From assembly GCA_964384595.1 (NCBI GenBank), contig CAYLLY010000003.1, positions 198-64,197 on the forward strand: a stretch of 64,000 bases of DNA. Reading direction: 5' to 3'. This stretch comes from an uncultured Nitrospirales bacterium. GTDB lineage: Bacteria > Nitrospirota > Nitrospiria > Nitrospirales > NS-4. This document shows, in pieces, positions 1 through 34,280 of this stretch (position 1 is the stretch's first letter; each line of letters opens with the position of its first letter). A program made the translations under genes and the position numbers. The notes beneath the pieces are model-generated. The model saw nothing but the letters and a program-made list of their open reading frames with translations. It searched no databases and had not been told where the DNA came from.

Positions 1-120
1 ATCGACAAATACGTCGAAGATGGCACCTCGGTTGCAACTCCGGAGGGGCTGGACCCGACCTTTTTCAAGAAATTGCTGGGGAAATTAACTCAACAGAAGG
101 AGGCTGGATATGAGCAGTAA
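1..120 (+). CDS. 3' end of an upstream ORF running off the left edge (partial, product unknown)
   Basis: Frame 1 is open from base 1 to TAA at 118-120 (IDKYVEDGTSVATPEGLDPTFFKKLLGKLTQQKEAGYEQ*). It overlaps the next start by 11 nt. Too short for a family call. Confidence 0.25.
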   Translation: MDKYVEDGTSVATPEGLDPTFFKKLLGKLTQQKEAGYEQ

Positions 121-3100
121 ATCGTTCGGTTGGAGAGATTCCGGCCGACTGGCCGATGCTCTCCAAACGATCGCGATCGCCGGCGGCTTGATCTTCTCGC
201 CGGCGGCGTTTGCCGCGGATGAGCACGCGCAGCACGCGGCTGGGGCGTCGAGCTCGGCTTGGGCTGAAAAGCTCAAGGGCCAGACGATCATCGAAAACGC
301 GATGGAGGGGCGTGCTGACCGGGCCGTGAAGGTGGACCTTCAGCATCAGCGCCTCATGCGCCAGATCGAGGAGCAGGCGAAAACGCAGCGGACATCGGGG
401 GGCTTCAACACGATGTCCACGATGCATCAGTTCGCGGGTCAGGACGGGGCCAGCTTCCTGCTGGCTTCGACGCCGGGCGTCGAGCCTGTCGCAATGACCG
501 GCGGGCGGTGCCCCAGCGGCGTGCCGGTCAAGGCGTACGATATCTCGATGATCGCCATCGAGATCACCCTGAACCGGTGGCTCGATTACTACCCGGGCTA
601 CATGTACGCGCTCACCGAGGACATCGGCAAGGTCCGGGGGGAGGAGGCTAGGAACAAGGCCGCGCGCGAGAACGAGAAGGATCCGTTCGATCCCGGCGCG
701 GTGACCACGGGCCTGCAGGGCGACATGATCCAGCCGCTGGTCATCCGCGCCAACCAGGGCGATTGCGTCAAGATCACCTTGCGGAACCAGTTGGAGAGCG
801 AGTCGGGCAGCCTCCACATCGGGGGTGCCAGCATGGTCGTCAGCGCCACCGGCAAGCTGGCGGCGACGACGAATCGTGACACCATTCTGGAGCCGAAGAA
901 GACGGTGGATCTGGAGTGGTACATCCATCCGAACACCCAGGAGGGCGTGCGGCAATTCCACTCTTACAGCAACGACCGGGAGCTGACGGTGATGGGGCTC
1001 TTCGGGGCCTTCGTCGTGGAGCCGAAGGGATCCCGGTACCTGGAACCCCTCGGTGATCCCAATACCCCGGCCCCGGAAACCAAGAGCGGCTGGCAGGTGA
1101 TCATTGACAACGGCTCCGGGCCGGACTTCCGCGAGCACGTGATCTTCTACCACGAGGTCGGCGACGAGGCGTTTCGCCCGGTGAACAAGAAGGGCGACTT
1201 CCTGCCGCAGCGCGACCCGATCACGGATGCCTACCGTCCGGGCGGCCGCGCGCTGAATTACCGCAGCGAGCCGTTCGGCATTGACGAGATGCACCTGCAG
1301 CACGAGTATTTCGGCTTCGAGGACGAGTCGCTTGCTTACAGCGCTTATACGTTCGGCGACGTGCCCACGACGCTTCCGCGGGCGTACCTGGGCGATCCCG
1401 TCAAGTGGCGGATCGTGCACGGCGGGTCGGAAGTGTTCCATTCCCACCATCCGCACGGCGGCTCCATCCGCTGGCCGCGCAGCCCGCGCGCGTTGGACAA
1501 CGAGTTGTGGGCCACGGCCACGAATGGCCCGGTGAAGTATCCGGTCGTCCGGACCAAGACGGACCGGGTGGACGTCGAGGTGATTGGCCCGGCGGAAGCG
1601 CTCGACCTGGAGAACGAGTGCGGGTCGGGTCTCTGCCAGCAATTGGCCGGGGACTTCCTGTTCCACTGCCACGTGGCGCACCACTATGTGGCGGGAATGT
1701 GGGGCTACGGCCGCACGTACAACACGCTGCAAGTCGGCCAGTACCATACCGACACGATGCCCGATCTGCGTGAGCTGCCGGACCGCCTGGGCCGCATGAA
1801 GGTCGGCGTGACCTCCGACAAGCTCATCGGCACGACGGTGGACTGGTTCGGCAAGATCTTCAAGATCGTGGAAAAGGGCAAATCCAACTGGAAGAGCGAT
1901 CCGGCGGTCGTGACCATCAAGGATTGGGTCGAGATGCAAGTGCCGACCATGGGCAAGCCGGGCCACAAGGATGACGAGAAGGGCCAGATCATGGCCTACG
2001 ACGCGACCGTGTGGGACTGGAAGTGGAGCGGCAACAAGGCTCTCGGCGAGCGCGAGAGCACGGCGAAGAACCCGAAGTATCCCGCGGCGGCGAAGTGGGA
2101 TGACAGCACGAGGCCGCCGATCCTGTTCGACGCGAAGACGGGCAAGGTGTCCTTCCCGTTGATCAAGCCGCACTTCGGCAAGCGCGTCATGTTCCCGCCG
2201 AACCACAACGGCGCGCCCTGGCTGGAGCAGATCCATCAGGATGCGAACGGCGAACGGACCGCCGAGCCGGCGACGCCGGGCGAGCAGGGCCGCTGGAGCC
2301 TCTGCCCGGAGAACGCCAACCGGAAGTTCTATAACATCCACTTCATCCGGACGCCGATCACCCTTGCCAAGAAGCAGGGCAAGGAGCCTCCGATCGTGGA
2401 CAAGGACGGCTTGATCTACGTGCTTCACGAGGAAGAAACCGACACGCGGGCGAACGACGACAAGAAGTACCCGCTGGTCATCCGCGCGAATGTGTACGAC
2501 TGCGTGGATTCGATTCTGACGAGCGAGTGGGACGACGACGACTTCACGAACTTCCAGTCGTCCAAGATCAACATCCATCCCCACTTTATGCAATTCGACA
2601 ACCAAGCGTCGGACGGCGTGATCAGCGGGCTCTCGTACGAGCAATCCGTGCGGCCGTTCACGATGATGGAGAAGCCGAAGAAGGCAGGCCTGCCGGTGCC
2701 GATGAATACGGTGCTGACGGACGCGGTGAAGGCGGGCAGCAAGACCATCAAGGTCAAGAACGCGGCCCAGTACCATGTGAACACCGAGTTGCTGGTCGGG
2801 GCGGACTGCCTGATGCCGAGCAAGGATACCTCCACGGCGGTGAAGCGGGAAGCGAGCTGCTCGGAAGTGGGCCGGATCAAGACGATCAACGGCAACGAGA
2901 TCACGCTCTACCAGCCGTTGAGGCATAACCACCCGGTCAAAGACATCGTGACGGTGGAGTTCGCCCGCATGCGGTGGTGGGTGGACGTGGATCTGGGCAC
3001 GGTCTTCTGGCACGACCACGCCTTCGGCGCGACCACCTGGCCGCACGGGGGGTTCGGCGTGGTCCTCATCGAGCCGTACGGGTCCACCTATCATGACCCG

Positions 3101-5026
3101 AAGACCGGCAAGAAGCTCTGGAGCGGTCCCATCGCCGACATCCACACCACGGAACCGATCGGGTACGGCGTGAACGGCAGCTTCCGTGAGCTGATGGTCT
3201 CGATCCATGACACGGTGCCGCATACCGTGAACATGATCCAGGCGGGGAATCCGCCCGGGCAGCCGATCGAGGTCGCGCTGGAAGGCGGCAAGACGGTGTC
3301 CTTCCAGATGCCGGACAAGATCCAAATGCTGCCCAATCAATATGTGAACGGCGGCACGCATACCACCGGAAGCGGGTTCAACTTCCGGGCCGAGCCGTTC
3401 GCGCAGCGTCTGGCGAACAACCCGGATACGGCCAAGCTGTTCAGCAGCGCCGTGCACGGGGACCCTGATACGCCTCTTGTCAAGGCCTACGTGGGGGACA
3501 CCCTGGTGTTCCGTCTCTTGCACCAGTTGATGAACGAGTCGCACGTGTGGACCAGCGCGGGCCATACCTGGCTAAGCGAGCGCTATGCGGGCGACGCCAA
3601 TCGGAAGTACTCGCTCCATGTCGGGATCGCCGAACGGTATGATCTCGTGAGCAAAGCGGGCGGCTTCCAGGGAATGCCCGGCGACTACATTCACTTCAAC
3701 GGGCGCGCCTCCCATTTCATGGAAGGCGGCTGGGGCATCATCCGTGTCCTGGACAAGGAAACGCCGGATCTGAAAAAGCTGCCGCCCGGCACGGCCAAGG
3801 CGGAAATCCCGGCGGTGCCGAAGTCGGTCTGCCCGGACGACGCGCCGGTGAAGACCTTCAACGTGGTCGCGATGGATCGGACGCTCGTCTTCAACACGAA
3901 GGCGAAAGGCGCGATCGAGGTGGACTTCGAGCGCAAGATCGAGGTCGGCAACACCGAAGGCAAGATCTTCGCGCTGGAGGACGAAGCCTCGCGCGTGGCG
4001 ACGGGGGCCCAGCCGATGCCGTTGACCCTGCGCGTGAACCTGGGTGACTGCATCAAGGTCAACCTGAAGAACAAGATGGCCGCGAGCCGGGCGTCGTTCT
4101 TTGCGCCGGGCCTGGCCTTCGATCCGAGAGATTCGCACGGGATCAACGTCGGCAATAATCCGGGCGACCAGACGATCGGCCCGGGCGAAAGCCGCACGTA
4201 CACGTTCTATGCCCATCCCCTCAACAAGGAGACCTCCTCCCTGGTGTGGGACGGCGCGAATATCGTGTCCAATCCGCGGAACGGGCTGTTCGGCTCGGTC
4301 ATCGTCGGGCCCAAGGGTTCCAAGTATAGAGACCCTGTGACCGGCGAGGACATTTCACAGAAGAACAGCTGGCGGGCCGACGTGATCGTGGATGCGAGCC
4401 TGCCGGAGAACGCCGGCAAGAGCAACTACCGGGACGTGGCCCTCTTCTTCCAGGATGAGGACAACATCATCGGGACGAGCTTCATGCCGTACGTGCAGAA
4501 CGTGGCCGGCTTGACGGGCGTGAACTACCGGAACGAGCCGTACAAGCAGCGCGAGGAGCAGGGGTGCAAGCTCGGGCATATCTTCCAACCATGCTCGGTG
4601 ACGCAACCTGAAGATCCGCAAACGCCTTTGATCGAGGCGCATGCCGGCGATCCGGTGCGGATCCACGTGTTCGGCGCGTGGAGCGAGCAGAACGGCATGT
4701 TCGGTGTCGAAGGCCACGAGTGGCCGATCGAGCCGTACATGGCCGGCGCGGACATGATCAGCGTGGTCGAGTTCGCCGGTTCCGAGTTCCTGGACGTCTT
4801 CATCCGGGGCGGAGCGGGCGGACCATACCGGCAGACCGGCGACTATGTCTGGTCGAATCAGCGGCTCCCATACTCGCAGTCGGGACAGTGGGGGTACCTA
4901 CGGGTCCTGCCGGCGAACGACACGCGAATCAAGTCGCTGGGCGACGCGTCTGCGGCTGGCCAGAGGGCGGAAACACAGCCTGAGGCGCCCGTTGCGACGC
5001 CGGCGGCGTTGAAAGCCGAGAAGTAA
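110..5026 (+). CDS. Giant secreted multicopper oxidase, six cupredoxin domains (three repeats of a two-domain unit); same size class as MofA/MnxG-type large MCOs
   Basis: 1638-aa ORF with RBS aaggagg (97-103) 6 nt before ATG110. Signal-like N-terminus (IAIAGGLIFSPAAFAADEH). Three-fold internal repeat: LVIRANQGDCVKITLRN / LVIRANVYDCVDSILTS / LTLRVNLGDCIKVNLKN, and FGAFVVEPKGSRY / FGVVLIEPYGSTY / FGSVIVGPKGSKY. Cu-ligand motifs: HSHHPHGG, one H-C-H-x3-H-x4-M (HCHVAHHYVAGM, nt 1664-1699), IHPH, and WHDH (nt 3008-3019). Confidence 0.88.
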   Translation: MSSKSFGWRDSGRLADALQTIAIAGGLIFSPAAFAADEHAQHAAGASSSAWAEKLKGQTIIENAMEGRADRAVKVDLQHQRLMRQIEEQAKTQRTSGGFNTMSTMHQFAGQDGASFLLASTPGVEPVAMTGGRCPSGVPVKAYDISMIAIEITLNRWLDYYPGYMYALTEDIGKVRGEEARNKAARENEKDPFDPGAVTTGLQGDMIQPLVIRANQGDCVKITLRNQLESESGSLHIGGASMVVSATGKLAATTNRDTILEPKKTVDLEWYIHPNTQEGVRQFHSYSNDRELTVMGLFGAFVVEPKGSRYLEPLGDPNTPAPETKSGWQVIIDNGSGPDFREHVIFYHEVGDEAFRPVNKKGDFLPQRDPITDAYRPGGRALNYRSEPFGIDEMHLQHEYFGFEDESLAYSAYTFGDVPTTLPRAYLGDPVKWRIVHGGSEVFHSHHPHGGSIRWPRSPRALDNELWATATNGPVKYPVVRTKTDRVDVEVIGPAEALDLENECGSGLCQQLAGDFLFHCHVAHHYVAGMWGYGRTYNTLQVGQYHTDTMPDLRELPDRLGRMKVGVTSDKLIGTTVDWFGKIFKIVEKGKSNWKSDPAVVTIKDWVEMQVPTMGKPGHKDDEKGQIMAYDATVWDWKWSGNKALGERESTAKNPKYPAAAKWDDSTRPPILFDAKTGKVSFPLIKPHFGKRVMFPPNHNGAPWLEQIHQDANGERTAEPATPGEQGRWSLCPENANRKFYNIHFIRTPITLAKKQGKEPPIVDKDGLIYVLHEEETDTRANDDKKYPLVIRANVYDCVDSILTSEWDDDDFTNFQSSKINIHPHFMQFDNQASDGVISGLSYEQSVRPFTMMEKPKKAGLPVPMNTVLTDAVKAGSKTIKVKNAAQYHVNTELLVGADCLMPSKDTSTAVKREASCSEVGRIKTINGNEITLYQPLRHNHPVKDIVTVEFARMRWWVDVDLGTVFWHDHAFGATTWPHGGFGVVLIEPYGSTYHDPKTGKKLWSGPIADIHTTEPIGYGVNGSFRELMVSIHDTVPHTVNMIQAGNPPGQPIEVALEGGKTVSFQMPDKIQMLPNQYVNGGTHTTGSGFNFRAEPFAQRLANNPDTAKLFSSAVHGDPDTPLVKAYVGDTLVFRLLHQLMNESHVWTSAGHTWLSERYAGDANRKYSLHVGIAERYDLVSKAGGFQGMPGDYIHFNGRASHFMEGGWGIIRVLDKETPDLKKLPPGTAKAEIPAVPKSVCPDDAPVKTFNVVAMDRTLVFNTKAKGAIEVDFERKIEVGNTEGKIFALEDEASRVATGAQPMPLTLRVNLGDCIKVNLKNKMAASRASFFAPGLAFDPRDSHGINVGNNPGDQTIGPGESRTYTFYAHPLNKETSSLVWDGANIVSNPRNGLFGSVIVGPKGSKYRDPVTGEDISQKNSWRADVIVDASLPENAGKSNYRDVALFFQDEDNIIGTSFMPYVQNVAGLTGVNYRNEPYKQREEQGCKLGHIFQPCSVTQPEDPQTPLIEAHAGDPVRIHVFGAWSEQNGMFGVEGHEWPIEPYMAGADMISVVEFAGSEFLDVFIRGGAGGPYRQTGDYVWSNQRLPYSQSGQWGYLRVLPANDTRIKSLGDASAAGQRAETQPEAPVATPAALKAEK

Positions 5027-5141: not shown

Positions 5142-5180
5142 GGGGGGGCGCTGGTTCAAAGCGCCCCCCCGTTTCGTTTA
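5142..5180 (+). terminator. Rho-independent terminator after the giant MCO gene
   Basis: Perfect 11-bp GC-rich stem GGGGGGGCGCT (5142-5152) / AGCGCCCCCCC (5160-5170) with a 7-nt loop, followed by GTTTCGTTTAAAAA. Confidence 0.7.
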
Positions 5181-5222: not shown

Positions 5223-6173
5223 ATGGATTATCAGAGCAAGGTCGGTCATCAGATGGGAGGAGGCCGTGGACTGCTGCTGTGCCTGGTTTTCTCACTGGCA
5301 TTCGGGGTGCCGGGGGTCTCAGCCTACCAGGAAGCGCCGGTCACGGATGGCGGGAAAATTTCCGGAACGGTCACGCTCAAGGGCGGCAAACCGGTTCCGC
5401 GGGGGTTCAACCTCGTCACGTTCCCGGACCCTTTGTACTGCGGGCGTATTTCGAACGGCGCCGGCTGGCGGCTGTTGAAGGAGTTCGCGATGGGTCAGGA
5501 GAACGGCGTCAAGGACGTGGTGGTGATGCTGAGCGGAATCGAGAAGGGCAAGCCGTTCGCGTTCCAGACGCCTCGCATCGAAGCGATCGACTGCCTGTTC
5601 AGACCGTTTGTCACCGTCGTTCGGGATCACGACAAGGTGGAAGTCGTCAACATGGACCCGGTCATGCACGACATCCAGGGTTACGAGACGTCGGAATTGG
5701 GACCGCGAGTCCTGTTCAACAGACCGATGCCGATGAATCCCCATCATCCTCGAACCGCCGGTCAGAGCGCCGAATACCATAAGCATATTCCCGGCGAGCC
5801 GATGGTTCAGGAAATCAACATGACCAAGGGACGCCACGTTTTCGTCATGCAGTGCGGATTCCACGCCTACATGGAAAGCTGGGGCCTGGCCGTGGATAAT
5901 CCCTACTTTGCCTTGACGGATCAGTCCGGGGGGTTCGAGATCGGCAATATCCCGCCGGGGACGTACAAGCTCGTCGTCTGGCATCCTCAGGCCCGTCAGA
6001 CCATCGAACAGGAAGTGACGATTCCGGCCAAGGGTTCTGCGATGATGAATTTTGAGATTCAGCCGCGCGAGGGCGCTCGGGCCGGCATGGATACGGTGGA
6101 GAACCCCCGGTTCGGCCTCGGCATCCTCGGAAGCGCCCAGATCAAGCCCACGCTTGAGCTGCAACAGCCGTAA
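5223..6173 (+). CDS. Secreted cupredoxin-like protein with putative type-1 Cu site and C-terminal beta-sandwich (carboxypeptidase-regulatory-like) domain
   Basis: ATG5223 preceded by ggggagg; the track ORF begins at 5070 but has no RBS there. Signal peptide LLLCLVFSLAFGVPGVSAYQ. Candidate Cu ligands: NMDPVMH and CGFHAYM (C-x2-H-x2-M). C-terminus GGFEIGNIPPGTYKLVVWHP...AKGSAMMNFEI. Clear paralog of 26984-27730. Confidence 0.8.
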   Translation: MDYQSKVGHQMGGGRGLLLCLVFSLAFGVPGVSAYQEAPVTDGGKISGTVTLKGGKPVPRGFNLVTFPDPLYCGRISNGAGWRLLKEFAMGQENGVKDVVVMLSGIEKGKPFAFQTPRIEAIDCLFRPFVTVVRDHDKVEVVNMDPVMHDIQGYETSELGPRVLFNRPMPMNPHHPRTAGQSAEYHKHIPGEPMVQEINMTKGRHVFVMQCGFHAYMESWGLAVDNPYFALTDQSGGFEIGNIPPGTYKLVVWHPQARQTIEQEVTIPAKGSAMMNFEIQPREGARAGMDTVENPRFGLGILGSAQIKPTLELQQP

Positions 6174-6193: not shown

Positions 6194-6799
6194 TCAGTAG
6201 GCCTGGATGGGCGGGGGACTTGGAGCGGGGGGGCGCCACTCGGCATATCCGAGAGGAGGCTCAAAGAAAAAGGCGGGCTGTTTCGAAAACACGACGTGTT
6301 CGTACTCGACGGACCAATCACGATCCCGGCTGACGGTCCGCAGGGGAACCCCGTGTTCGACCGACACCCATTGGTAGTACCGTTCAGCCGAAGCTCCGCT
6401 CCCCACGGTGACGTCGTACAGGCGGGACCGGTGCCCGCCGAGTTTCTCTTCGCCCACGAGGACGCGGGCGGTTTCTCCCTCCATGGTTTCCGTGAGCGGA
6501 ATGAGGTGGTCCGGTCGCAGCGGCAGGGAGAGGTACTGTCTGCGCTTCGAGAGGAGCAGCCACACCGCCTGCTTGTCCAGTCGCACGATCGACACCCCGG
6601 CATAGCCCAGGTCGGTGAGCACGCCGCCCCGGTGCTCCAACCGCCACCGGTCGTCCTTCACGTATAATTGCGCCCGCGTTGTTTTCCCGTTCGAGCGGGA
6701 CACATAGTCGGCCGAAAATTCCACGGCAAAGGAGCATTCGACGGAGGCGAAGAACCACAGTGCTCCCGAAGCCGCCGCTGTCAGGCGTGTGATGGTCAC
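6194..6799 (-). CDS. Secreted LolA-like/DUF4412-like protein (function unknown)
   Basis: 201-aa ORF with signal-like N-terminus (AAASGALWFFASVECSFAVEF). It starts 10 nt after the stop of the upstream minus-strand gene. Paralog of 48570-49160 (shared F.AE/ADY...RWR.E.R...YYQWV...R.VS..DW..EY..V.F..Q...FFEPP.GYA). Confidence 0.7.
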   Translation of the reverse strand: MTITRLTAAASGALWFFASVECSFAVEFSADYVSRSNGKTTRAQLYVKDDRWRLEHRGGVLTDLGYAGVSIVRLDKQAVWLLLSKRRQYLSLPLRPDHLIPLTETMEGETARVLVGEEKLGGHRSRLYDVTVGSGASAERYYQWVSVEHGVPLRTVSRDRDWSVEYEHVVFSKQPAFFFEPPLGYAEWRPPAPSPPPIQAY

Positions 6800-6808
6800 G
6801 GGCGCCCG

Positions 6809-7651
6809 CTACCGTGCGGGGGCGGGCGTGGCGTCCGCCGCGCAGCGGAATCCCGTCGAGTGGTTCCGATTCAAGGGGTCGCTCATGACACGGGTGACGG
6901 AACGCACGAGCGGCGTCTCGACTTCCCATCCGGAACTGCGCAGCACTTTGTGCGTGCCGTTCTCGGGGCCTTTCGGATTCCGCGCCGGGCTTTTCTCATA
7001 GTAGTGCGCGTCATACCAGTCGGCGACCCATTCCCAGACATTGCCGGCCATGTCGTAAACCCCAAACGGGCTCTTGCCGGCCTCATAGCTTCCCACCGGC
7101 ATGAGCGTTTTCTCGCCCTGCCAGCGCTGGTTGAAGTTCAAATGCTTGTGTGTCGGTTCGACGTTGCCCCAGGGGAAACGGCGGTCGTCCGTGCCCCGCG
7201 CGGCTTTCTCCCACTCCGCTTCGGTCGGGAGGCGCCGACCGGCCCACCGGCAATACGCATTCGCATCATGCCAGTCCACGTTGACGACCGGCCGGTCGGC
7301 AATGGACTCCGGCATGGCCGCGCCCTGCCACAGGTTCCGGCCCGGATCCTTGAGATGCTGCGGGGGCCGGTGGCCGCTCGCGCGGACGAACTCCCGGTAG
7401 CGGCCGTTCGTCACCTCGAATTTGTCGATGTAGTAGGGATCGAGAAAGATCTCGTGGTTGGGATACTCGTCGCGGCCCCCGTCGCGGTCGCCCTTGGGCA
7501 CGCCCATCGGGAACGGGCCGGCGGGAACGAGGACCATCGGCGCGCCGTCCTTGCCGGTGGTGGTTCCGGCCGGATCGGCGCCGACGCCGGGTTCCGGGAT
7601 GAGCCAAAGGACTACGCTGAACACCATGGCCCTGAATAGAATGACTTGCAT
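6809..7651 (-). CDS. Formylglycine-generating-enzyme (FGE/SUMF1, DUF323) family protein, secreted
   Basis: Family signatures: YCRWAGRRLPTEAEWEKAARG, GNVWEWVADWY, RSSGW, STGFRCA. N-terminal signal peptide. Confidence 0.85.
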   Translation of the reverse strand: MQVILFRAMVFSVVLWLIPEPGVGADPAGTTTGKDGAPMVLVPAGPFPMGVPKGDRDGGRDEYPNHEIFLDPYYIDKFEVTNGRYREFVRASGHRPPQHLKDPGRNLWQGAAMPESIADRPVVNVDWHDANAYCRWAGRRLPTEAEWEKAARGTDDRRFPWGNVEPTHKHLNFNQRWQGEKTLMPVGSYEAGKSPFGVYDMAGNVWEWVADWYDAHYYEKSPARNPKGPENGTHKVLRSSGWEVETPLVRSVTRVMSDPLNRNHSTGFRCAADATPAPAR

Positions 7652-7779: not shown

Positions 7780-9105
7780 ATGAGACGAGTGTTGCGGGTT
7801 GTCGGGGTTGTGGCCGGGGTGTGCTTCTTGCAAGCGGGCGCCGTGCCGGCGGCCGACACGCTCAACGAGGCGCGTGCAGCCTTCGAGAAACGCGATTACG
7901 CCAAAGCCGTGACCCTTCTGGATGCCCTGATCGGGAAAGGCCCGGGGCCTTCAGGTGCGCTTGAGCTGCGGATGCGGACCCATCTCAAACTGAACCTGCC
8001 GGAAAAAGCGGTCGGCGACTACAACCGATTGGCCGAGCATCGCGGCGCGGAGGATCGCCCGCTGCTCCGGGAGCTGGCGTTGGGCGTCATTGCCCCGGCG
8101 GTGCTCGACATGCGGGAGCAAATGCGCGGGGCGGCGGTGACGGCCTTGAAGGAGATGGCGGGCGCCGACACGCTGCCGTTGCTGGAGTCGGCGCTGGCCG
8201 ATCAGTCGGCGCTGGTTCGCGCCCTGGCGGTCGAAGGGGTTGCCCTCCTGGGCCACGCCGCCCACTCGGCCCGTCTGCGCAAGCTTCTGAAGGACCCGGC
8301 CGCACTGGTCCGGGAGCGTGTGGTGCGCGCACTCGGCGAATCGGGAGACCGGCAGTTCATCCCTGAAATCGAGACCCTCTTGAAAGACGACCAGCCGCGG
8401 GTGAAAGCCGCGGCCGCGGCGGCCCTCGTGGCGTTGGGACGAGCGGAGGCGCTGACCACGGTGCTGGATGGGTTGAAACATCCCAAGCCGGACGAACGGG
8501 CCGCGGTGCTCCGGATACTCGCGCACCTGAAGGACGCCCGGGCGATTCCGGCGATCAAGGCGGCGTTGACCGACCGCGACGGCAACGTCCGCGCAGTCGC
8601 GGCGGGGATATTGGCCGAGCGCGGCGAAGCCGGGGCGGCGCCGGCCATCGCCTTGCTGATCCGGGACCCCGCGGCCATCGCCAGGGGCAAAGCGGCCGCC
8701 GGTCTGGCCAAGCTGGAGGGAGCGAGGGCCGCCCCCGTGATCGAGCCGCTGTTGCAGGAGGAAAACCTGTTCGTGCGCGCCGAGGCCGCCGTGGCGTTGC
8801 TGCCGTACAAGCCGGCGTCGGCCGAGCCGGCCTTGCGGGCCTCCATGCAGTCCCGGGATCCCGGCGTCCGCTCGGCCGTGGGCAAGGCGCTCGCGCACAC
8901 CGGGAATCCCGTCGTCCTGCCGTACCTGCTCGAACTCATGCGGGACGACACCCCGCGCCCCCGCATCACGGCCATTCGCGCCCTCGGCCATCTTGGCTCC
9001 GAGAAATACCTGCCGACGCTGAAACCGCTCCTATCCGACGCTGATGTCGCGGTTCGGGTCACGGCGGCGGGGTCCATCGGTCGCCTGCTGCACGAGTCAA
9101 AATAA
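7780..9105 (+). CDS. HEAT-repeat (PBS-lyase-type) protein with N-terminal signal and TPR-like segment
   Basis: Start moved to ATG7780 (MRRVLRVVGVVAGVCFLQAGA). Repeated units such as DQSALVRALAVEGVALLG, DPAALVRERVVRALGESGDRQFIPEIETLLKDDQPRVKAAAAAALVALG, DRDGNVRAVAAGILAERG, DPGVRSAVGKALAHTGNPVVLPYLLELMRDD, DADVAVRVTAAGSIGRL. Confidence 0.8.
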   Translation: MRRVLRVVGVVAGVCFLQAGAVPAADTLNEARAAFEKRDYAKAVTLLDALIGKGPGPSGALELRMRTHLKLNLPEKAVGDYNRLAEHRGAEDRPLLRELALGVIAPAVLDMREQMRGAAVTALKEMAGADTLPLLESALADQSALVRALAVEGVALLGHAAHSARLRKLLKDPAALVRERVVRALGESGDRQFIPEIETLLKDDQPRVKAAAAAALVALGRAEALTTVLDGLKHPKPDERAAVLRILAHLKDARAIPAIKAALTDRDGNVRAVAAGILAERGEAGAAPAIALLIRDPAAIARGKAAAGLAKLEGARAAPVIEPLLQEENLFVRAEAAVALLPYKPASAEPALRASMQSRDPGVRSAVGKALAHTGNPVVLPYLLELMRDDTPRPRITAIRALGHLGSEKYLPTLKPLLSDADVAVRVTAAGSIGRLLHESK

Positions 9106-9112
9106 AGAGATT

Positions 9113-9982
9113 GTGCGGCCTTTCTCACTCATTTTGGCTGCGCTTCTCGTCACGCCGGCAGCCCAGGCGGCCGCAGCGGATGAGGTCGTCGACCTAGGGC
9201 GGCACCTCGCCGCCATCGCGCAGCTTGCCAGGCCGTCGCCTATGGTCCTGGTCACGGAAGGCCGGTTCCTCATGGGCACCATCCGAAAAGACGACGATCC
9301 CTATGGGATGGAGGCCCAGTTCGACGACACCGAGATACCGCAGCGCCGCATTTGGCTCGACACCTACGAGATTGACCGCGATGAGGTGAGCCTGGCCGAG
9401 TACCTTGCGTGGTTGCAGGAGCAGCGCCGCCCGCCGCCGGAGGAGTTGCAGCGTCTGATCCGGCACCTCGTCAGCGTGCACAGCCTGCCGGATTACGTCA
9501 TGGCGCGCTGGCCCGCGCTGTACGTCGTCTGGCAGGAGGCGGCGGACTTCTGCCGGAGCCGGGGCAAGCGTCTGCCGACGGAGGCCGAGTGGGAGAAGGC
9601 GGCACGGGGGCCCAATGGCAACCTCTTTCCGTGGGGCAAGGCGAAGCCGGAGTGGGGGCTGGCGGTGTTCGGACAGTACCACGTTCACGAGATCCCGCTC
9701 GTGGCGGCGGTGGACAGCGGGGAGGAAGGACGCAGTCCCTTCGGCCTCCGTCACATGGCGGGCAACGTGGCGGAGTGGGCGCAGGACTGGTTTGGGACCG
9801 ACTACTATGTCGTGATGCCGGAGCAGAACCCCCAGGGGCCTCCGACCGGCCGATACAGGAGCGTGCGCGGCGGCTCCTGGAAGAGCAAGCCGGGCATGCT
9901 GCGGACAGCGACCCGGGGCGGCGCCGTGCCGGACCAGCGCGCGGCGACCATCGGATTCAGATGCGCCCGACCGGTGCCGTGA
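9113..9982 (+). CDS. Formylglycine-generating-enzyme (FGE/SUMF1, DUF323) family protein, secreted (second copy)
   Basis: FCRSRGKRLPTEAEWEKAARG, GNVAEWAQDWF, RGGSW, TIGFRCARP. GTG9113 chosen because it gives the signal peptide VRPFSLILAALLVTPAAQAAA and avoids a long overlap with the HEAT gene. The start remains uncertain (track ORF begins at 9044). Confidence 0.82.
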   Translation: MRPFSLILAALLVTPAAQAAAADEVVDLGRHLAAIAQLARPSPMVLVTEGRFLMGTIRKDDDPYGMEAQFDDTEIPQRRIWLDTYEIDRDEVSLAEYLAWLQEQRRPPPEELQRLIRHLVSVHSLPDYVMARWPALYVVWQEAADFCRSRGKRLPTEAEWEKAARGPNGNLFPWGKAKPEWGLAVFGQYHVHEIPLVAAVDSGEEGRSPFGLRHMAGNVAEWAQDWFGTDYYVVMPEQNPQGPPTGRYRSVRGGSWKSKPGMLRTATRGGAVPDQRAATIGFRCARPVP

Positions 9983-22386: not shown

Positions 22387-23589
22387 GTGGAGAGAAAAAA
22401 GAACAAACTATGGACATTCGTCATTTTGCTGTTCGGTGTGGCGATTGTGGCGGCTATGACGATGGCGTGGACCGCCTGGGCCGGAAACAACGAGGGCAAG
22501 ACCCCTCGTCCGCTCGCGGCCCTGCCGCCGGGCCCGCACCCGGGACCGGCGGACAACCCAACCACTCCGGAGAAGGCCAAGCTGGGGGAGTTGCTCTTCT
22601 TCGAGCAGCGGTTGTCGGGTGACGGGAGCACGCCCTGCTCCAAGTGCCATGATCCGAAGCAGGGATGGGGAACGACGGACGATCTCTCGATCGGCTATCC
22701 GGGGACGCAGCACTTCCGCAACTCGCACACAGTCCTCAACACCGGTCACCTGAAGAAGTATTTCTGGGAGGGCCGGGCCACGAGTCTTGAGGCCCAGGCC
22801 GGCGGCGCGGCGGGCGGGCAATCGGCCGGCAATCTCCAGTTCGACATAGGGGAGGCCCGGATGCGCCAGGTGCCGGAGTACCGGGAGATGTTCATGAAGG
22901 TCTTCGGCGAACTGCCGACCTGGGACAACGCGGCGCGGGCGATCGCGGCCTTCCAGCGGACGTTGAACTCGGATCCAAAGGTAGTCCCGTTCGACCGTTA
23001 CATGAACGGCGACAAGAGCGCCATGACCCCGCAGCAGGTCAAGGGCATGGAGCTCTTCAAAGGCAAGGCCAACTGCATCGCCTGCCACGATGGGATGATG
23101 TTCACCGACGAGGACCATCACAATCTCGGCCTGCCGCGCAACCCGGCCTTCGACGACGATCCGCTCAGGCAGATCGAGTTGCGGTTCCGCATGAAGTCGA
23201 ACGGCATCCAGAACTACAACGAAGTGGACGAGGATTTGGGACTCTACATGGCGACCCACCGGACGCAGGACATCGGGCGGTTTCGCACCGAGAAGCTGCG
23301 TGAGTCGAAGCACACGGCGCCGTACATGCACAACGGCGTCTTTTCCACGCTGGAGGAAGTCGTCGAGTTCTACGACAAGGGCGGCGAGGAGCCGGGCAAG
23401 TTCAAGGGCGTCAAGGACCCGCTCATGAAACCGCTGGAGCTGACGGCCGACGAGAAGAAGGCATTGGTGGCGTTCCTCGAGGCGCTCAGCAGCCCTGAGA
23501 CTCCGTTCAAGGACATCAACCCGGTCCTGCCGAAGGACGGGATCGTCACGGTGGACAAAAAAGTCGTGCCGCTGCCGGCCGGCAAGTAG
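22387..23589 (+). CDS. Di-haem cytochrome c peroxidase (CCP/MauG family)
   Basis: GTG start after gggggag. N-terminal TM/signal. Two CxxCH motifs (CSKCHD, CIACHDG). Conserved APYMHNGVFSTLEEVVEFY segment. Confidence 0.9.
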   Translation: MERKKNKLWTFVILLFGVAIVAAMTMAWTAWAGNNEGKTPRPLAALPPGPHPGPADNPTTPEKAKLGELLFFEQRLSGDGSTPCSKCHDPKQGWGTTDDLSIGYPGTQHFRNSHTVLNTGHLKKYFWEGRATSLEAQAGGAAGGQSAGNLQFDIGEARMRQVPEYREMFMKVFGELPTWDNAARAIAAFQRTLNSDPKVVPFDRYMNGDKSAMTPQQVKGMELFKGKANCIACHDGMMFTDEDHHNLGLPRNPAFDDDPLRQIELRFRMKSNGIQNYNEVDEDLGLYMATHRTQDIGRFRTEKLRESKHTAPYMHNGVFSTLEEVVEFYDKGGEEPGKFKGVKDPLMKPLELTADEKKALVAFLEALSSPETPFKDINPVLPKDGIVTVDKKVVPLPAGK

Positions 23590-23607
23590 GTAGGAGGTAC
23601 AACGACG

Positions 23608-24231
23608 ATGGACGAGAAGGAAACCAAAGACAGCAAACTGAAGATGCTCAAGGAATTGGGCGAGGATGTGGGATGCATGACGCGCCGCAAGCTGCTCTTC
23701 CTGGGCGGCTTGGCCACGGCCACGACGCTGCTCCCGCCGGCCGTTGCGGACACGCTTGCCGCGGCGCCGAAGGCCAAGCCCAAGGAGGCGTCGAAGAAAC
23801 CGACGCCGGTGGCGATGCAGAGCACGCATTACCCGAGAAAGAAAGTCGGCAAATTGAGCGCGTTGAAACAGGACGAGCCGGTGAAGATCTCCTATCCGGC
23901 CGAGCATCCGAATCACAAGGCGCTGCTCATCAAACTGGGCGTGCCGGCGCTCGGCGGCGTGGGTCCGCAGAAGGACGTGGTGGCGTTCAGCGCGCTGTGC
24001 GTCCACCAGGGCGGACCGCTCGAAGACCGGTACAACGCGAAGGAAAAGATCATGGGGCCGTGCGAATTCCATCTCTCAATGTACGATCTCACGAAGCACG
24101 GGATAATCACGAGCGCGTCGGCGACCCAGAACCTCCCGCAAGTTGTGCTGGAGGTGGAAGGGGACGACATTTACGCGGTAGGGATGCAGGGGCTCATCTA
24201 CGGGTTCCCGGACAACCTGCTGCCCGTCTAG
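23608..24231 (+). CDS. TAT-exported Rieske [2Fe-2S] small subunit, AioB/IdrB-like
   Basis: RBS aggagg (23591-23596). Twin-arginine TRRKLLFLGGLATA. Rieske boxes CVHQGG and CEFH (C-x-H ... C-x2-H). 18-nt gaps to both neighbouring genes. Confidence 0.88.
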   Translation: MDEKETKDSKLKMLKELGEDVGCMTRRKLLFLGGLATATTLLPPAVADTLAAAPKAKPKEASKKPTPVAMQSTHYPRKKVGKLSALKQDEPVKISYPAEHPNHKALLIKLGVPALGGVGPQKDVVAFSALCVHQGGPLEDRYNAKEKIMGPCEFHLSMYDLTKHGIITSASATQNLPQVVLEVEGDDIYAVGMQGLIYGFPDNLLPV

Positions 24232-24249
24232 ACGTAAGGGGGTGAAGAC

Positions 24250-26919
24250 ATGAGTAAGGCAGGAATCAACGTATCATTCGCCACCGTCGTTCCGGAGGAC
24301 AAGGTCCCGCTGCCTCCGCCCGACGCGAAGATCTATCCCACGGCCTGTGACTATTGCGTCGTGGGGTGCGCGTACCGGGCGATCGTCTGGCCGGTCGGCA
24401 AGGAGGGCGGCCCGAAAGCCAATCAGAACGCCTACGGCGTGGATTTCCCGATCACCGAGGCGCAGGCCGGGAACTGGGCCACGCCGGAGCAGCACACGAT
24501 CGTGCTGAAAGACGGGGAGCCGCACCACTGCATCGTAATTCCGGCGATCAGCGAGCGGGTGAACCGCTCGGGCAACCACAGCATCCGGGGCGGGAACATC
24601 GCCCAGAAGTGTTACAGCCCGGTGAAGCCGACGTCGGACCGGCTCCAGACGCCGCTGATGCGGGTCCGGAATGTGCTGGTACCCATCTCCTGGGAGGACG
24701 CGACCACCATCACGGCCGAGGTGGGGAAGTATGTGCTCGACAAGTACGACGAGCTGGCCTACGGGGCCCAGACCTTCTCGTACCAGTTCTGGGAGAACAC
24801 CTACGCGATTACCAAGCTCCTGCTGCAATCCATCGAGACGCCATGCTGGGCGCACCACGACAAGCCGTCGGCCCAGGGCGACGCGGTCGGAATGGAGGAT
24901 GCGGGGATCGACACGTTCGGCTCGGCCTATGAGGACTTCAAGCTGGCCGAGGTGATCTATATCTCAGGGGCCGACCCCTACGAGAACCAGACCATCATGT
25001 TTACCGAGTGGATCATGGACGGGGGCGCCAAGTTGATCAATGCGCTGCCCCGCAAGTCCACGGGGGCCGCGTACGGCGAGAAGAACGGCGGCCTGTTCCT
25101 CCAGGTCATTCCGGGCACGGACCCTGTGCTGAACAACGCGATGTGCCGGGTCATCATCGAGAACGGCTGGGAGGACAAGGAGTTCATCGCCAAGTGGTGC
25201 GCCGACGACGAGGAGATTGACTGGGGCATGGGTCGCGGCGTCCGCAACACGCCCTGGCAGTGGCGGACGACGCGGTGGGGCGTGTCCTTCGCGAAGTGGA
25301 AGGACTGGCTCCTGAAGGACGAGTTCACGACGCTGGAATATGCGGAGAAGACGACGGGGGTTCCGCGCGCCAAGATCGTGAAGGCGGCGGAGATGCTGAC
25401 CGGCGGCGGGAAGGGCCCGCGCCCGAAGGCGTCCTTCCTCCATGAGAAAGGCAACTACTGGTCCAATAACTACCTGAGCTCGACCTCGTTCTGCAACCTG
25501 GGGCTCATCTGCGGCGCCGGAACGAAACCCGGGCAGCGGATCAGCCGGTGCGGCGGTCACCAGCGCGGTGGGATGGGCGCGGCGCCGTATCCCATCACGA
25601 AGACGCCGCAGCGGTTCGGGCGGATCGGCCGGCTGGCGATGGATGTGGACCGGTGGATCTTGAGCAACAACCTTCGGTTCCTGTGGGTGATCGGGGCCCA
25701 GAAGCTCGAGAACTCCTGCGCGAATGGCGCGCTGCACGACTATTTCCGGCAGCATGTGACCCTGTCGCCTCATCAGATTGACAGTACGGATCCGAAGCGG
25801 GCGATCGAAGTGCTCAAAGCGCGGGTGGACAACCAGGATATCGTGTGCGTCAACTCGGAAATCTATCTGCGGACGTTCGGCAACCAGTACGCGGACATCG
25901 TGATGCCGGCGGCGACCTGGGGCGAAGAGGACTTCACTCGCGCGCAAGGCGAGCGGGTGATGCGGATCTATTCCAAGTTCTACGACCCGCCGGGCGACGC
26001 GAAGCCCGATTGGTGGATCATCTCCCAGGTGGCGAAGAAAATGGGGTTCGAGGGGTACAACTGGAAGTCCTCCCAAGATGTCTTCAAGGAGGCGGCGCGC
26101 TTCTCGCGCGGCGGGATTCTGGAGTACGCGCCGTTGTTGCCCTACGCCAAGCTCAAAGGGAAGGAGCCCTATGAGTTGCTGCGGGAGCGGGGCGCCATGG
26201 GGTACCAGACGCCGCTGCGGCTGCACGACGGCGAGCTGATCGAGACCAAGCGGACCAACGACGAAACGGCGGCGCCCATGATCGAGACCCCGCAGGGGAT
26301 CTCGACCATGCAGAAGCGGCTCTCGGGATTTACCCGGCCGTCCGGCAAGGCGCTCCTGCACAAGGTGGACTGGAAGCTCTACAAGGACTTCCACGAGGCC
26401 ATCAGCCCCAAGAAGGAGAAGGGCGAGCTGTGGGTTACCAACGGGCGGGTCAACGAGATCTGGCAGTCGGTCTTCGACGACATGCGGAAACCGTACATCA
26501 TGCAGCGGTATCCGATGAACTTCGTCGAGATCCACCCGGAGGACGCGAAGGCGCGGGGGATCGAGAACGGCGACATCGTGTCCATGGAGAATGACGAGGT
26601 CTTTGTCCAGACCGGCGGCTTCTACTTCCTGCGGGATTCGGACGCGCTGTTCACGAGCCTGATGAAGAACGGCCACATCAAGACGACCAAGGGGTCGGCG
26701 ACGGCCATGGCGATCGTGACGGATGCCGTGCAGCCGGGGCTGGCATACCAGTACTTCCTGTGGCCGGGCGCGAGCGGCAACGCGCTGGCGCACAATGTGC
26801 CGGATCCGATCACCAATGCCCCGCGCTACAAGACGGGGAAGGCGGTGATCAAGAAGATCGGCACGCTGCCGGATCGCCTGAAGGCGCGCATCACGTGGGC
26901 GAACAAGAACGCGGTATAG
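24250..26919 (+). CDS. Molybdopterin (bis-MGD) oxidoreductase large subunit of the arsenite-oxidase (AioA) / iodate-reductase (IdrA) family
   Basis: 889 aa. N-terminal C-x2-C-x3-C (CDYCVVGCAY), as in the AioA 3Fe-4S site. No signal peptide, consistent with TAT hitch-hiking on the Rieske partner. MGD-binding-type segments (YISGADPYENQ, CGGHQRGG). Adjacent to the Rieske subunit. Confidence 0.9.
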   Translation: MSKAGINVSFATVVPEDKVPLPPPDAKIYPTACDYCVVGCAYRAIVWPVGKEGGPKANQNAYGVDFPITEAQAGNWATPEQHTIVLKDGEPHHCIVIPAISERVNRSGNHSIRGGNIAQKCYSPVKPTSDRLQTPLMRVRNVLVPISWEDATTITAEVGKYVLDKYDELAYGAQTFSYQFWENTYAITKLLLQSIETPCWAHHDKPSAQGDAVGMEDAGIDTFGSAYEDFKLAEVIYISGADPYENQTIMFTEWIMDGGAKLINALPRKSTGAAYGEKNGGLFLQVIPGTDPVLNNAMCRVIIENGWEDKEFIAKWCADDEEIDWGMGRGVRNTPWQWRTTRWGVSFAKWKDWLLKDEFTTLEYAEKTTGVPRAKIVKAAEMLTGGGKGPRPKASFLHEKGNYWSNNYLSSTSFCNLGLICGAGTKPGQRISRCGGHQRGGMGAAPYPITKTPQRFGRIGRLAMDVDRWILSNNLRFLWVIGAQKLENSCANGALHDYFRQHVTLSPHQIDSTDPKRAIEVLKARVDNQDIVCVNSEIYLRTFGNQYADIVMPAATWGEEDFTRAQGERVMRIYSKFYDPPGDAKPDWWIISQVAKKMGFEGYNWKSSQDVFKEAARFSRGGILEYAPLLPYAKLKGKEPYELLRERGAMGYQTPLRLHDGELIETKRTNDETAAPMIETPQGISTMQKRLSGFTRPSGKALLHKVDWKLYKDFHEAISPKKEKGELWVTNGRVNEIWQSVFDDMRKPYIMQRYPMNFVEIHPEDAKARGIENGDIVSMENDEVFVQTGGFYFLRDSDALFTSLMKNGHIKTTKGSATAMAIVTDAVQPGLAYQYFLWPGASGNALAHNVPDPITNAPRYKTGKAVIKKIGTLPDRLKARITWANKNAV

Positions 26920-26931
26920 GGGGAACGAATC

Positions 26932-26960
26932 TGGGGGACAGATTTGAAATCTGTCCCCCA
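26932..26960 (+). other. Perfect intergenic stem-loop (14-bp arms)
   Basis: TGGGGGACAGATTT-G-AAATCTGTCCCCCA, 13 nt after the Mo-subunit stop. No following T-tract. Confidence 0.8.
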
Positions 26961-26983
26961 TCAAATCAGGGAGGATTAGAGCG

Positions 26984-27730
26984 ATGGGCAAGTATAGGTT
27001 TGTAATGGCGGCCGTGGCGGCGATGGGGCTCGTGGCGGCGCCGGCGGCATTCGGATATGAGGAAGCGGCTGTGAGCGACGGGGGCGCCGTCACCGGCAAG
27101 ATCAGCTTCAAGGGGAAGGTCCCTGAGCCACAGCATTTCCTGGTGCAGAAGAACCCTGACGTCTGCGGGAAGGAGCGCGATTTTCCGTTCGTGCGGGTGA
27201 AAGACGGAGCGCTCCAGAACGTGGTGGTGGTCATCGAAGGCATTGAAAAGGGGAAACCCTTCACGCACGCGCCGACCGAGTTTATCGGGAAGGAATGCGC
27301 GTTTCTTCCGTATGTGTCGTTCGTGACCAAGAAGGGCGTGGACGGGTGGCCGGTGTTCAAGATCGAGAACACGGACACCGTCATTCACAATCCCCACACC
27401 TATGCGATCGCGGGGGCGACGCGGGTGACGTTATTTAACGTCGCATTGCCGGAGAAAGGCTCCAAGCTGGAGAAGGAGCTGAAGAACAGGAAAGGCAACG
27501 TCATCAAGCTGGAGTGCGACCAGCACGACTTCATGCACAGTTGGACGCGGGTGGTGGAGCATCCCTACTTCGCGGTGGTGGACGACGGGGGCGCCTTCAA
27601 GATCGACGGCGTGCCGGCAGGCAAGTACAAGCTCGTGGCGTGGCATCCGATCCTGGGCGAGCAGACGGCGGAAGTAACCGTCGCGGCCAAGGGATCGGCG
27701 AAGGCGGATTTCACGTTCGCGGGAAAGTAA
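26984..27730 (+). CDS. Secreted cupredoxin-like protein with putative type-1 Cu site and C-terminal beta-sandwich domain (paralog of 5223-6173)
   Basis: Signal peptide MAAVAAMGLVAAPAAFG. Candidate Cu ligands NTDTVIH and CDQHDFM (C-x2-H-x2-M). C-terminus GGAFKIDGVPAGKYKLVAWHP...AKGSAKADFTF. Confidence 0.85.
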   Translation: MGKYRFVMAAVAAMGLVAAPAAFGYEEAAVSDGGAVTGKISFKGKVPEPQHFLVQKNPDVCGKERDFPFVRVKDGALQNVVVVIEGIEKGKPFTHAPTEFIGKECAFLPYVSFVTKKGVDGWPVFKIENTDTVIHNPHTYAIAGATRVTLFNVALPEKGSKLEKELKNRKGNVIKLECDQHDFMHSWTRVVEHPYFAVVDDGGAFKIDGVPAGKYKLVAWHPILGEQTAEVTVAAKGSAKADFTFAGK

Positions 27731-27748
27731 AGAAAGGGGTGAAAGACA

Positions 27749-28918: not shown

Positions 28919-28951
28919 GGGGTGGTTTGATTCGAACCGAGAGGGAGAGCG

Positions 28952-29419: not shown

Positions 29420-29493
29420 GGATGACCGGGAGGCGGGCCCCGGCGGGCTGAGCGAGTTGGCCGCTGCCGGCTCCGGAATACTGTGGACAGCGT

Positions 29494-29871: not shown

Positions 29872-29905
29872 GAGGGAGTTGCCCGAGGAAAGGGGAGAGT
29901 TCGAG

Positions 29906-30451: not shown

Positions 30452-30465
30452 CGGGAGGTGGCGCG

Positions 30466-32918: not shown

Positions 32919-32935
32919 AAACGGAGATTCTTGTT

Positions 32936-33532: not shown

Positions 33533-33554
33533 TGGGAAACCGAGGAGAGACGGT

Positions 33555-34277: not shown

Positions 34278-34280
34278 GCG

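Follow-up and report, generated by a model that had tools for sequence, protein, structure and literature searches.

Two paralogous secreted proteins in a Nitrospirales locus

The locus analysed here is a 64,000-nucleotide stretch of DNA (hereafter the window) from an uncultured Nitrospirales bacterium (assembly GCA_964384595.1, contig CAYLLY010000003.1, positions 198 to 64,197), which carries two genes encoding related exported proteins, designated A (316 aa, 5223-6173) and B (248 aa, 26984-27730). All coordinates refer to the window, and features lie on the forward strand unless otherwise indicated. An initial annotation had described A and B as paralogous secreted cupredoxin-like proteins, and had grouped with them the product of a third gene (29494-29871) on account of a ligand loop of the amicyanin type. 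The coordinates of all three genes were confirmed as open reading frames (ORFs). Gene A presents a ribosome-binding site (GGGGAGG) and starts 197 nt past the stop codon (5026) of a gene encoding a giant multicopper oxidase (MCO), and gene B (ribosome-binding site GGGAGG) starts 65 nt past the stop codon (26919) of the gene for the molybdenum (Mo) subunit of an Aio/Idr-type enzyme. Sec-type signal peptides were identified on both proteins.

Pairwise comparison with BLASTP bore out the paralogy of A and B (32% identity over 273 columns, E 5e-41), and the motifs ascribed to them, including a common C-terminal sandwich sequence, were found in both. These comprise an N-x-D-x-V-x-H segment, a C-x2-H-x2-M loop and the sequence GxFxIxxxPxGxYKLVxWHP, which read NMDPVMH...CGFHAYM...GGFEIGNIPPGTYKLVVWHP in A and NTDTVIH...CDQHDFM...GAFKIDGVPAGKYKLVAWHP in B. 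An upstream His followed by C-x2-H-x2-M defines the short ligand loop of amicyanin-type type-1 Cu sites, and this loop is present in all three proteins as CGFHAYM (A), CDQHDFM (B) and CRLHALM (29494-29871). The predicted N-terminal His ligand is His149 in A (5667-5669) and His135 in B (27386-27388), with the ligand loops encompassing Cys211, His214 and Met217 in A (5853-5873) and Cys178, His181 and Met184 in B (27515-27535).

The initial annotation had allowed that homologs might lack the Cys, His and Met residues, and this did not prove to be the case in the sequences aligned here. An alignment of 115 B-type sequences revealed invariant positions (B numbering) at C61, C105, N129, D131, H135, C178, H181 and M184, together with a few Gly, Lys and Tyr residues, and the same columns are invariant in a joint alignment of the A and B subfamilies (85 sequences). 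Furthermore, all 120 of the closest A homologs present both N-x-D-P-V-M-H and C-G-F-H-x-[YF]-M. Given that the ligand residues are invariant across the 115-sequence alignment and in both subfamilies, the likeness of the A and B motifs is not attributable to chance. A-type proteins also display two features that are absent from B-type proteins: a His-rich insertion (NPHHP...YHKH; A residues ~170-193), present in 103 of the 120 homologs, and a C-terminal tail (ENPRFGLGILG..IKPTLELQQP; A residues ~285-316), present in 94. These elements could constitute a second metal site or a peptide for docking to the MCO.

A predicted cupredoxin fold with a putative type-1 copper ligand set

The only Pfam matches obtained for A and B were to the CarboxypepD_reg and fn3_3 domains, over the last ~50 residues, and A/B-type proteins are publicly annotated as 'carboxypeptidase regulatory-like domain-containing' or hypothetical proteins. 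Scanning A and B against NCBIfam returned no match at all, the amicyanin model TIGR02657 (equivalog cut-off 110.2 bits) included. Structural prediction provided a different view of the central part of both proteins. AlphaFold (AF2) models built on the family alignments were confident (pLDDT 92.1 and pTM 0.85 for B; pLDDT 83.8 for A), and Foldseek searches of the PDB with either model returned almost exclusively cupredoxins, with TMt values of 0.6-0.73. The best structural match was the nitrite reductase NirK (6hbe, E 2.3e-5), accompanied by the purple cupredoxin of Nitrosopumilus (5fc9, TMt 0.69), plastocyanin (1byp, TMt 0.70), amicyanin, auracyanin, nitrosocyanin (1ic0), AcoP, and azurin and pseudoazurin variants engineered with amicyanin-type loops. 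A non-cupredoxin match corresponded to the transthyretin-like fn3_3 sandwich of rhamnogalacturonan lyase.

The Cys closes one strand in both models and the Met comes directly before the following one (in B, strands 173-178 and 185-191, respectively), and the upstream His resides in the loop that follows the N-x-D strand. The predicted placement of the ligands is hence that of a canonical type-1 topology. Comparison of the family profile with amicyanin using hhalign, for which we relied on what we take to be the amicyanin sequence, superimposed H135, C178, H181 and M184 on H53, C92, H95 and M98 in a weak alignment (E 0.045, probability ~1%). Against the small cupredoxin encoded at 29494-29871, the ligand loop alone was aligned (E 0.075). 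The cupredoxin-like identity of A and B is based on the predicted fold, the register of the motifs and the weak hhalign match to amicyanin, the last of these being supporting rather than decisive evidence. With an invariant ligand set, a predicted cupredoxin fold, and the Cys and Met positioned at the end of one strand and ahead of the next, both proteins are very probably type-1 Cu proteins with a ligand loop of amicyanin length.

The cupredoxin domain appears to be nested in a split beta-sandwich

Protein A matched the CarboxypepD_reg model (PF13620) with 35.0 bits (cut-off 32.3), covering profile positions 32-81 only, and B matched it with 27.6 bits, under the same cut-off. Two N-terminal segments of these proteins, with the patterns 'DGGxIxGKVxxxG' and 'GALxxVVVxxEG', resemble the first two strands of the CarboxypepD_reg domain. 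When these and the C-terminal segment of B were spliced together (residues 30-46, 73-88 and 190-248), the match rose above the cut-off (36.3 bits) and extended over profile positions 3-80, from the 30.8 bits and positions 32-80 obtained before splicing. This extension of the match by the joined N-terminal and C-terminal strands suggests that the cupredoxin domain is inserted into a split transthyretin-like sandwich, so that the beta-sandwich of the initial annotation is present in A and B as proposed, but does not seem to be purely C-terminal. No solved multi-domain structure with a cupredoxin nested in a transthyretin-like sandwich was matched in the Foldseek searches against the PDB.

Sequence clades of the family correspond to gene context

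A database search with A returned 2,872 clusters, the closest of which were almost all from the Nitrospirota. Genes of the B type were found in about 500 species-representative genomes from at least eight phyla, including Nitrospirota, Nitrospinota, Gamma-, Alpha- and Betaproteobacteria, Methylomirabilota, Myxococcota, Magnetococcales and one metagenome-assembled genome (MAG) of the Spirochaetaceae. A profile search of 1.84 billion representative sequences yielded 1,192 matches at E<=1e-30, some of which are unrelated giant proteins made of CarboxypepD_reg repeats. Setting giant proteins aside, C-x2-H-x2-M is retained in 110 of the 125 family representatives at 50% identity.

Average-linkage clustering of 217 family members outlined clades that correspond to both gene context and ligand loop. 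Members of the CGFHAYM clade lie downstream of the MCO gene, and those of the CDQHEFM clade downstream of a gene encoding a HEAT-repeat protein in the Nitrospirales. The CDQHDFM clade, to which the B protein of the window belongs, is located between Mo and peroxidase genes. Lastly, the CDAHDFM clade occurs between HEAT and Usp genes in the Proteobacteria, or directly ahead of peroxidase genes.

Natural fusions of the module were also identified (P0391, P0408, P0395, P0384 and P0398), combining it with one or two cytochrome c domains, with a cytochrome c and a beta-propeller in a planctomycete, and with ankyrin repeats. The cytochrome c fusions retain both CxxCH and C-x2-H-x2-M, and this preservation of haem and Cu motifs in the same polypeptide argues for a role in electron transfer. 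The ankyrin fusions lack the complete loop: P0384 presents CDQHNYE and P0398 has no such motif.

Genomic context of protein A

The gene upstream of A (110-5026) encodes a 1638-aa MCO with Cu-oxidase_3 and Cu-oxidase_2 domains, which matches the MnxG model weakly (127 bits, for a cut-off of 3100 bits) and has the size of the MCOs reported for Nitrospina and Nitrospira (PMC3578206). Synteny was assessed in 80 metagenomic loci harboring A-type genes, 49 of them with at least 1.5 kb of upstream sequence, and the giant MCO gene was the direct upstream neighbour in 47 of these 49. The possibility that A supplies a type-1 centre missing from the enzyme was considered and rejected, as the MCO carries its own HCHxxxHxxxxM type-1/trinuclear cluster signature at residues 519-530.

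The intergenic region between the MCO gene and A contains a terminator-like GC hairpin (5142-5170), with a stem of 11 pairs, 10 of them G-C, followed by the T-run GTTTCGTTT. In 52 of 65 related loci (L005-L006, L089-L168) the same position is occupied by a hairpin with a T-run, the stem sequences differing from one locus to another yet remaining self-complementary. The element has the appearance of a conserved terminator or attenuator, which would set the ratio of MCO to A expression.

On the 3' side, A is typically followed by a gene with an FGE-sulfatase domain, directly so in 28 loci, and then often by genes encoding a HEAT-repeat protein, another paralog (B') and a bd-like oxidase. In the window, the first FGE-sulfatase gene lies on the reverse strand (6809-7651, Pfam E 1.8e-59). 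It is followed by a gene for a HEAT-repeat protein (7780-9105, HEAT_2, E 2e-47), with a signal-like N-terminus from the Met at 7780, and by a second FGE-sulfatase gene (9044-9982, Pfam E 2.1e-45), so that a secreted HEAT-repeat protein is flanked by two secreted FGE-sulfatase paralogs. A forward-strand ORF at 6668-7639 was discarded as a neighbouring gene, since it has no family match and is a shadow of the minus-strand FGE-sulfatase gene.

Genomic context of protein B

Gene B is part of a same-strand array (22387-35228) that encodes, in this order, a peroxidase, a Rieske protein, the Mo subunit of the Aio/Idr-type enzyme and B, then another peroxidase, a cytochrome c and the small cupredoxin, and lastly, past a 196-aa ORF, a bd-like oxidase, a pair of cytochromes c and a haem b subunit of the EB_dh type. 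The first peroxidase is a di-haem, IdrP-like cytochrome c peroxidase (22387-23589, CCP_MauG, E 6.7e-41), and the second (27749-28918, CCP_MauG, E 2e-35) is of the same kind and 48% identical to it. The Rieske small subunit (23608-24231) is AioB/IdrB-like, scoring 122 bits against TIGR02694 (cut-off 95.65). The 889-aa molybdopterin large subunit (24250-26919) encompasses Rieske_3, Molybdopterin and Molydop_binding domains and scores 415 bits against TIGR02693 (cut-off 359); among solved structures, AioA (4aay, 248 bits) is the closest relative. A 13-bp hairpin devoid of a T-run separates the Mo gene from B (26932-26960), and an equivalent hairpin of different sequence was detected in Nitrospirota and Nitrospinota loci (L009-L014).

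Reyes-Umana et al. (PMC8692401) assigned Aio-like enzymes encoded with two peroxidase genes to the iodate reductase (Idr) type by synteny. The Aio-like Mo and Rieske genes of the window are flanked by two di-haem peroxidase genes, and on this basis the cluster is putatively of the Idr type, with a gene order that differs from the canonical idrP2-P1-B-A. Nitrospinaceae MAGs share the peroxidase-Rieske-Mo-B-peroxidase-cytochrome c block (L010, L011, L013).

Beyond the second peroxidase lie the genes for a mono-haem cytochrome c (28952-29419, Cytochrome_CBB3 and Cytochrom_C) and for the 125-aa small cupredoxin (29494-29871). The latter, with His70 and the CRLHALM loop (29821-29841), matches Copper-bind (PF00127) with 28.1 bits (cut-off 21.2, E 2.9e-6), and its best NCBIfam match is the amicyanin model TIGR02657 (37.1 bits, below the 110.2 cut-off). 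Its sequence thus identifies it as an ordinary plastocyanin/amicyanin-type cupredoxin. No match to this protein was obtained in any of the related loci, indicating that it is not a conserved partner of the system. The array ends with a TO_1-type module (30885-35228) comprising the bd-like oxidase together with both cytochromes c and the EB_dh-type subunit, which is a frequent neighbour of B-type genes. The genome has the appearance of a relative of Nitrospirota nitrite oxidisers, and the continuity of an Idr-type cluster with a TO_1-type bd-like operon on the same strand prompts one to ask whether nitrite oxidisers reduce iodate-type oxyanions. After this module, the window encodes a two-domain NirK/laccase-like MCO of 377 aa (36618-37751) and a sulfite-oxidase-type Mo enzyme (41116-42327, Oxidored_molyb and Mo-co_dimer), and it is overall dense in periplasmic redox enzymes.

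The synteny of B-type genes was examined in 79 loci. A HEAT-repeat gene lies upstream of B in 38 of them, and a Usp/PCP_red gene directly downstream in 31, with a small ORF at that position in 7 more. In 17 loci B is followed by a cytochrome c peroxidase gene that leads into a peroxidase-peroxidase-Rieske-Mo series. A bd-like oxidase gene is found within 7 kb of B in 34 loci, and in four (L015, L062, L066, L077) B is the last gene of a bd-like/cytochrome c/EB_dh operon.

In the Proteobacteria, B-type genes form part of a block consisting of HEAT, B, a small transmembrane peptide (38-60 aa), a Usp+PCP_red gene, a radical SAM/SPASM+PCP_red gene and an FAD amine-oxidase/HemY-like gene (L001-L004 and L016-L083; for instance, L001:5689-13273). 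Homologs of this block are present in the window 25-30 kb downstream of B (53001-60050), namely a radical SAM/SPASM gene (53001-54131) and a Usp+rubredoxin-like+PCP_red gene (57533-59080), along with further radical SAM and FAD-enzyme genes and ResB. The proteobacterial block may encode a pathway for the modification of a cofactor, possibly haem, tied to the bd-like oxidase.

A probable role of A and B in electron transfer, and alternatives

On balance, we regard it as probable that A and B are periplasmic type-1 Cu electron carriers of a single uncharacterised family with a nested cupredoxin domain, the subfamilies of which have each been inherited with one respiratory module. This interpretation is favoured because it brings together the invariant ligands, the predicted fold, the context-specific subclades, the fusions to cytochrome c, and the precedents set by azurin with arsenite oxidase and by pseudoazurin with NirK. 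The arsenite oxidase family is named 'arsenate reductase (azurin)' in NCBIfam, and relatives of Aio are in this way known to use a cupredoxin.

Following Sec-dependent export, A and B would consist of a transthyretin-like sandwich and, set between its strands, a cupredoxin whose ligand loop (Cys-x2-His-x2-Met) is the shortest found in nature; the sandwich would probably act as a rigid pedestal or docking surface. The copper would cycle between Cu(II) and Cu(I), conveying single electrons between periplasmic redox partners. The family may then have diversified into an A clade associated with the ~1630-aa MCO and FGE-sulfatase genes, a clade containing the B of the window and associated with the Aio/Idr-like Mo enzyme and a peroxidase, and other clades (CDQHEFM, CDAHDFM) encoded after HEAT genes, ahead of idrP2-P1-B-A-type clusters or within bd-like operons. 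In this scenario B would most likely connect the adjacent bd-like oxidase module to the Rieske/Mo enzyme, to both peroxidases and to the cytochrome c of the window, and A would most likely exchange electrons with the giant MCO in the manner of pseudoazurin or azurin with NirK.

Several observations weigh against a carrier role. Cupredoxin models from Pfam and NCBIfam (PF00127, PF13473 and similar) gave no match to A or B at E<=0.1, and a scan of the central part of B by itself (144 residues) returned none even at E<=1; of the profiles that the initial annotation had named, CarboxypepD_reg was matched and the cupredoxin ones were not. Sequence searches of the PDB, whether with B alone or with the family profile, recovered the sandwich part or noise only, the hhalign correspondence with amicyanin is itself weak, and ~12% of family representatives lack the loop Met, presenting a Leu in its place or a truncation. 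The genomic evidence contributes further points. The Mo gene lies directly upstream of B in 5 of the 79 loci, all of them from the Nitrospirota or Nitrospinota, and the commonest neighbours of B-type genes (HEAT, Usp/PCP_red, radical SAM/SPASM, FAD amine-oxidase-like and FGE-sulfatase) resemble genes for maturation or cofactors more than genes for redox partners. In addition, hairpins, one of them terminator-like, intervene between A and B and their respective upstream enzyme genes. To our knowledge, moreover, MCOs do not normally require a cupredoxin, and the giant MCO has a type-1 site of its own.

These points also delimit what can be retained from the initial annotation, which had placed both proteins directly downstream of a large oxidoreductase and had envisaged them as a reusable adaptor between different enzymes and a common chain. 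The first statement holds for A, next to the MCO in 47 of 49 loci, and applies to B in a specific lineage. The second finds backing in the subclades, each of which keeps to one context, and is tempered by the narrow distribution of the Mo-B adjacency, by the prevalence of HEAT and maturation-like genes around B, and by the intervening hairpins.

The same considerations (lineage-specific Mo adjacency, maturation-like genes as the commonest neighbours, and hairpins separating A and B from the enzyme genes) make a role in copper handling or assembly the main rival explanation. A and B would in that case be metallochaperones or non-catalytic accessory subunits that supply copper to, or stabilise, the giant MCO, the bd-like oxidase or other copper enzymes, operating with the FGE-sulfatase-like and HEAT proteins and resembling MnxE/F with MnxG or AcoP with cytochrome c oxidase. 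The FGE-sulfatase genes directly 3' of A (28 loci) and the HEAT genes 5' of B (38/79) fit this proposal, as do the Usp/PCP_red, radical SAM/SPASM and FAD-enzyme genes that follow B in the Proteobacteria and suggest cofactor maturation. So do the His-rich insertion of 103 of the 120 A-clade homologs, a possible second metal site, the presence of AcoP among the structural matches, and the fact that the MCO already possesses a type-1 centre. An invariant His/Cys/His/Met set that lies buried in a short, rigid loop, as would be the case in A and B, is, however, the signature of electron transfer, and the known periplasmic Cu chaperones use exposed Met/His sites. Furthermore, the redox fusion partners of the family are cytochrome c domains and not chaperone or transporter domains, and the family is also present in loci without any MCO. 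An assembly role is, on this evidence, unlikely, although it should be taken seriously.

An electron-carrier role was also weighed against the possibility that A and B react with small molecules, in the manner of nitrosocyanin or purple cupredoxins, binding or converting NO, H2O2, hypoiodous acid or superoxide released by neighbouring enzymes instead of shuttling electrons. Both 5fc9 and 1ic0 were recovered in the structural searches, and B is encoded between an Idr-like enzyme and peroxidases, a system that has been proposed to generate HIO and H2O2 (PMC10989891). Likewise, a function in defence against reactive oxygen species (ROS) has been proposed for the MCO (PMC3578206). Nonetheless, classical electron carriers rank equally high in the same structural searches, and the invariant axial Met and closed amicyanin-type loop give no sign of an open coordination position, which makes such a reactivity improbable. 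Finally, it is very improbable that A and B are non-metal beta-sandwich binding proteins with a purely structural Cys/His/Met pattern, as could be surmised from the CarboxypepD_reg and fn3_3 domains that constitute their only HMM matches and from the concordant public annotations ('carboxypeptidase regulatory-like', 'polysaccharide lyase family 4 domain II'), because those matches span no more than ~50 residues at the C-terminus, a central stretch of ~100-140 residues adopts a cupredoxin fold in the models, none of the four ligand positions varies between phyla, and the gene surroundings are consistently respiratory.

A broader and more tentative proposal can also be formulated. The family might be the dedicated periplasmic 'wire' of copper still missing from a respiratory supermodule that is spread over many phyla. 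This supermodule would combine an Idr-type Mo enzyme and the accompanying peroxidases with the enigmatic bd-like (TO_1) oxidase and, in the Nitrospirales, with the giant MCO, and subfamily-specific loops and docking surfaces would set the enzyme that is served. We consider this extended scheme doubtful as a whole. If it held, nitrite oxidisers and many sulfur-oxidising and methylotrophic Proteobacteria would route electrons to or from the reduction of iodate-type oxyanions and O2 through a carrier that annotation has failed to reveal.

Relation to previous work

Lücker et al. (2013) described 'cupredoxin-like copper-binding proteins' in the NXR module of Nitrospina, Nitrospira and Kuenenia, and proposed the involvement of copper-based electron carriers (PMC3578206). 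The same work designated the ~1630-aa MCO of Nitrospina and Nitrospira a 'possible manganese oxidase' and suggested the role in ROS defence mentioned above. The neighbourhood it depicted resembles that of the window in comprising a bd-like oxidase, cytochromes c of the mono- and di-haem types, an alternative NxrC (EB_dh) and the ~1630-aa MCO, and on grounds of synteny the proteins of Lücker et al. are probably of the A/B type. It did not provide a domain analysis, a definition of the family, its distribution beyond nitrite oxidisers and anammox bacteria, or the link to Idr clusters. Apart from that report, our literature search found no discussion of A/B-type proteins, and we found no account elsewhere of their nested architecture, their breadth beyond nitrite oxidisers, the correspondence between subclades and modules, the Idr-cluster link or the fusions to cytochrome c.

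Little is understood of how the bd-like oxidases of Nitrospira and Nitrospina and the ~1630-aa MCO work or of the path of electrons to Idr-type enzymes, and the A/B family, which is conserved and abundant, adjoins all three. A probable blue-copper carrier that can be expressed and followed by spectroscopy would offer a handle for tracing electron transfer within these modules. Recognition of the family should also lead to better annotated genomes of nitrite oxidisers, Nitrospinota and Proteobacteria, among them those of populations from oxygen-deficient zones in which 'AioA-like' IdrA proteins have been detected.

Comparison with known copper systems

Amicyanin, the type-1 Cu carrier that serves methylamine dehydrogenase in the periplasm, shares with A and B the His...Cys-x2-His-x2-Met order of ligands and the shortest natural loop, and it was among the fold matches returned by Foldseek. 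The likeness extends upstream of the loop, where a motif of the form N-x-[DE]-x3-H-N-x-H is present in B (NTDTVIHNPH) and in what we take to be the corresponding amicyanin segment (NREAMPHNVH). In contrast to amicyanin, A and B show no significant profile match, and have a larger domain that appears nested within a second beta-sandwich domain. No methylamine dehydrogenase (mau) genes were found among the annotated ORFs of the window, and on this account and that of the HMM scores an orthology of A and B with amicyanin was rejected.

AcoP and MnxE/F provide examples of small copper proteins encoded beside, and bound to, a large copper oxidase. AcoP differs in its green site and in its loops, and MnxE/F are unrelated in sequence to A and B. 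Another analogy is offered by the pairing of pseudoazurin or azurin with NirK, in which a type-1 cupredoxin donates electrons to a copper enzyme made of several cupredoxin domains, and it is a NirK domain that constitutes the best structural match of A and B; the putative partner of A is, however, a ~1630-aa MnxG-like MCO.

B can be compared with the azurin or cytochrome c that serves arsenite oxidase (EC 1.20.9.1), a soluble partner of a Rieske/Mo enzyme of the Aio family, much as a cupredoxin-like gene directly follows that of the Mo subunit in the window. Unlike B, azurin stands alone as a single domain, its loop reads C-x4-H-x4-M, and its gene does not form part of aio operons. The enzyme of the window, in turn, departs from arsenite oxidase (Aio) in being accompanied by two cytochrome c peroxidase genes, the synteny that characterises the Idr type (PMC8692401).

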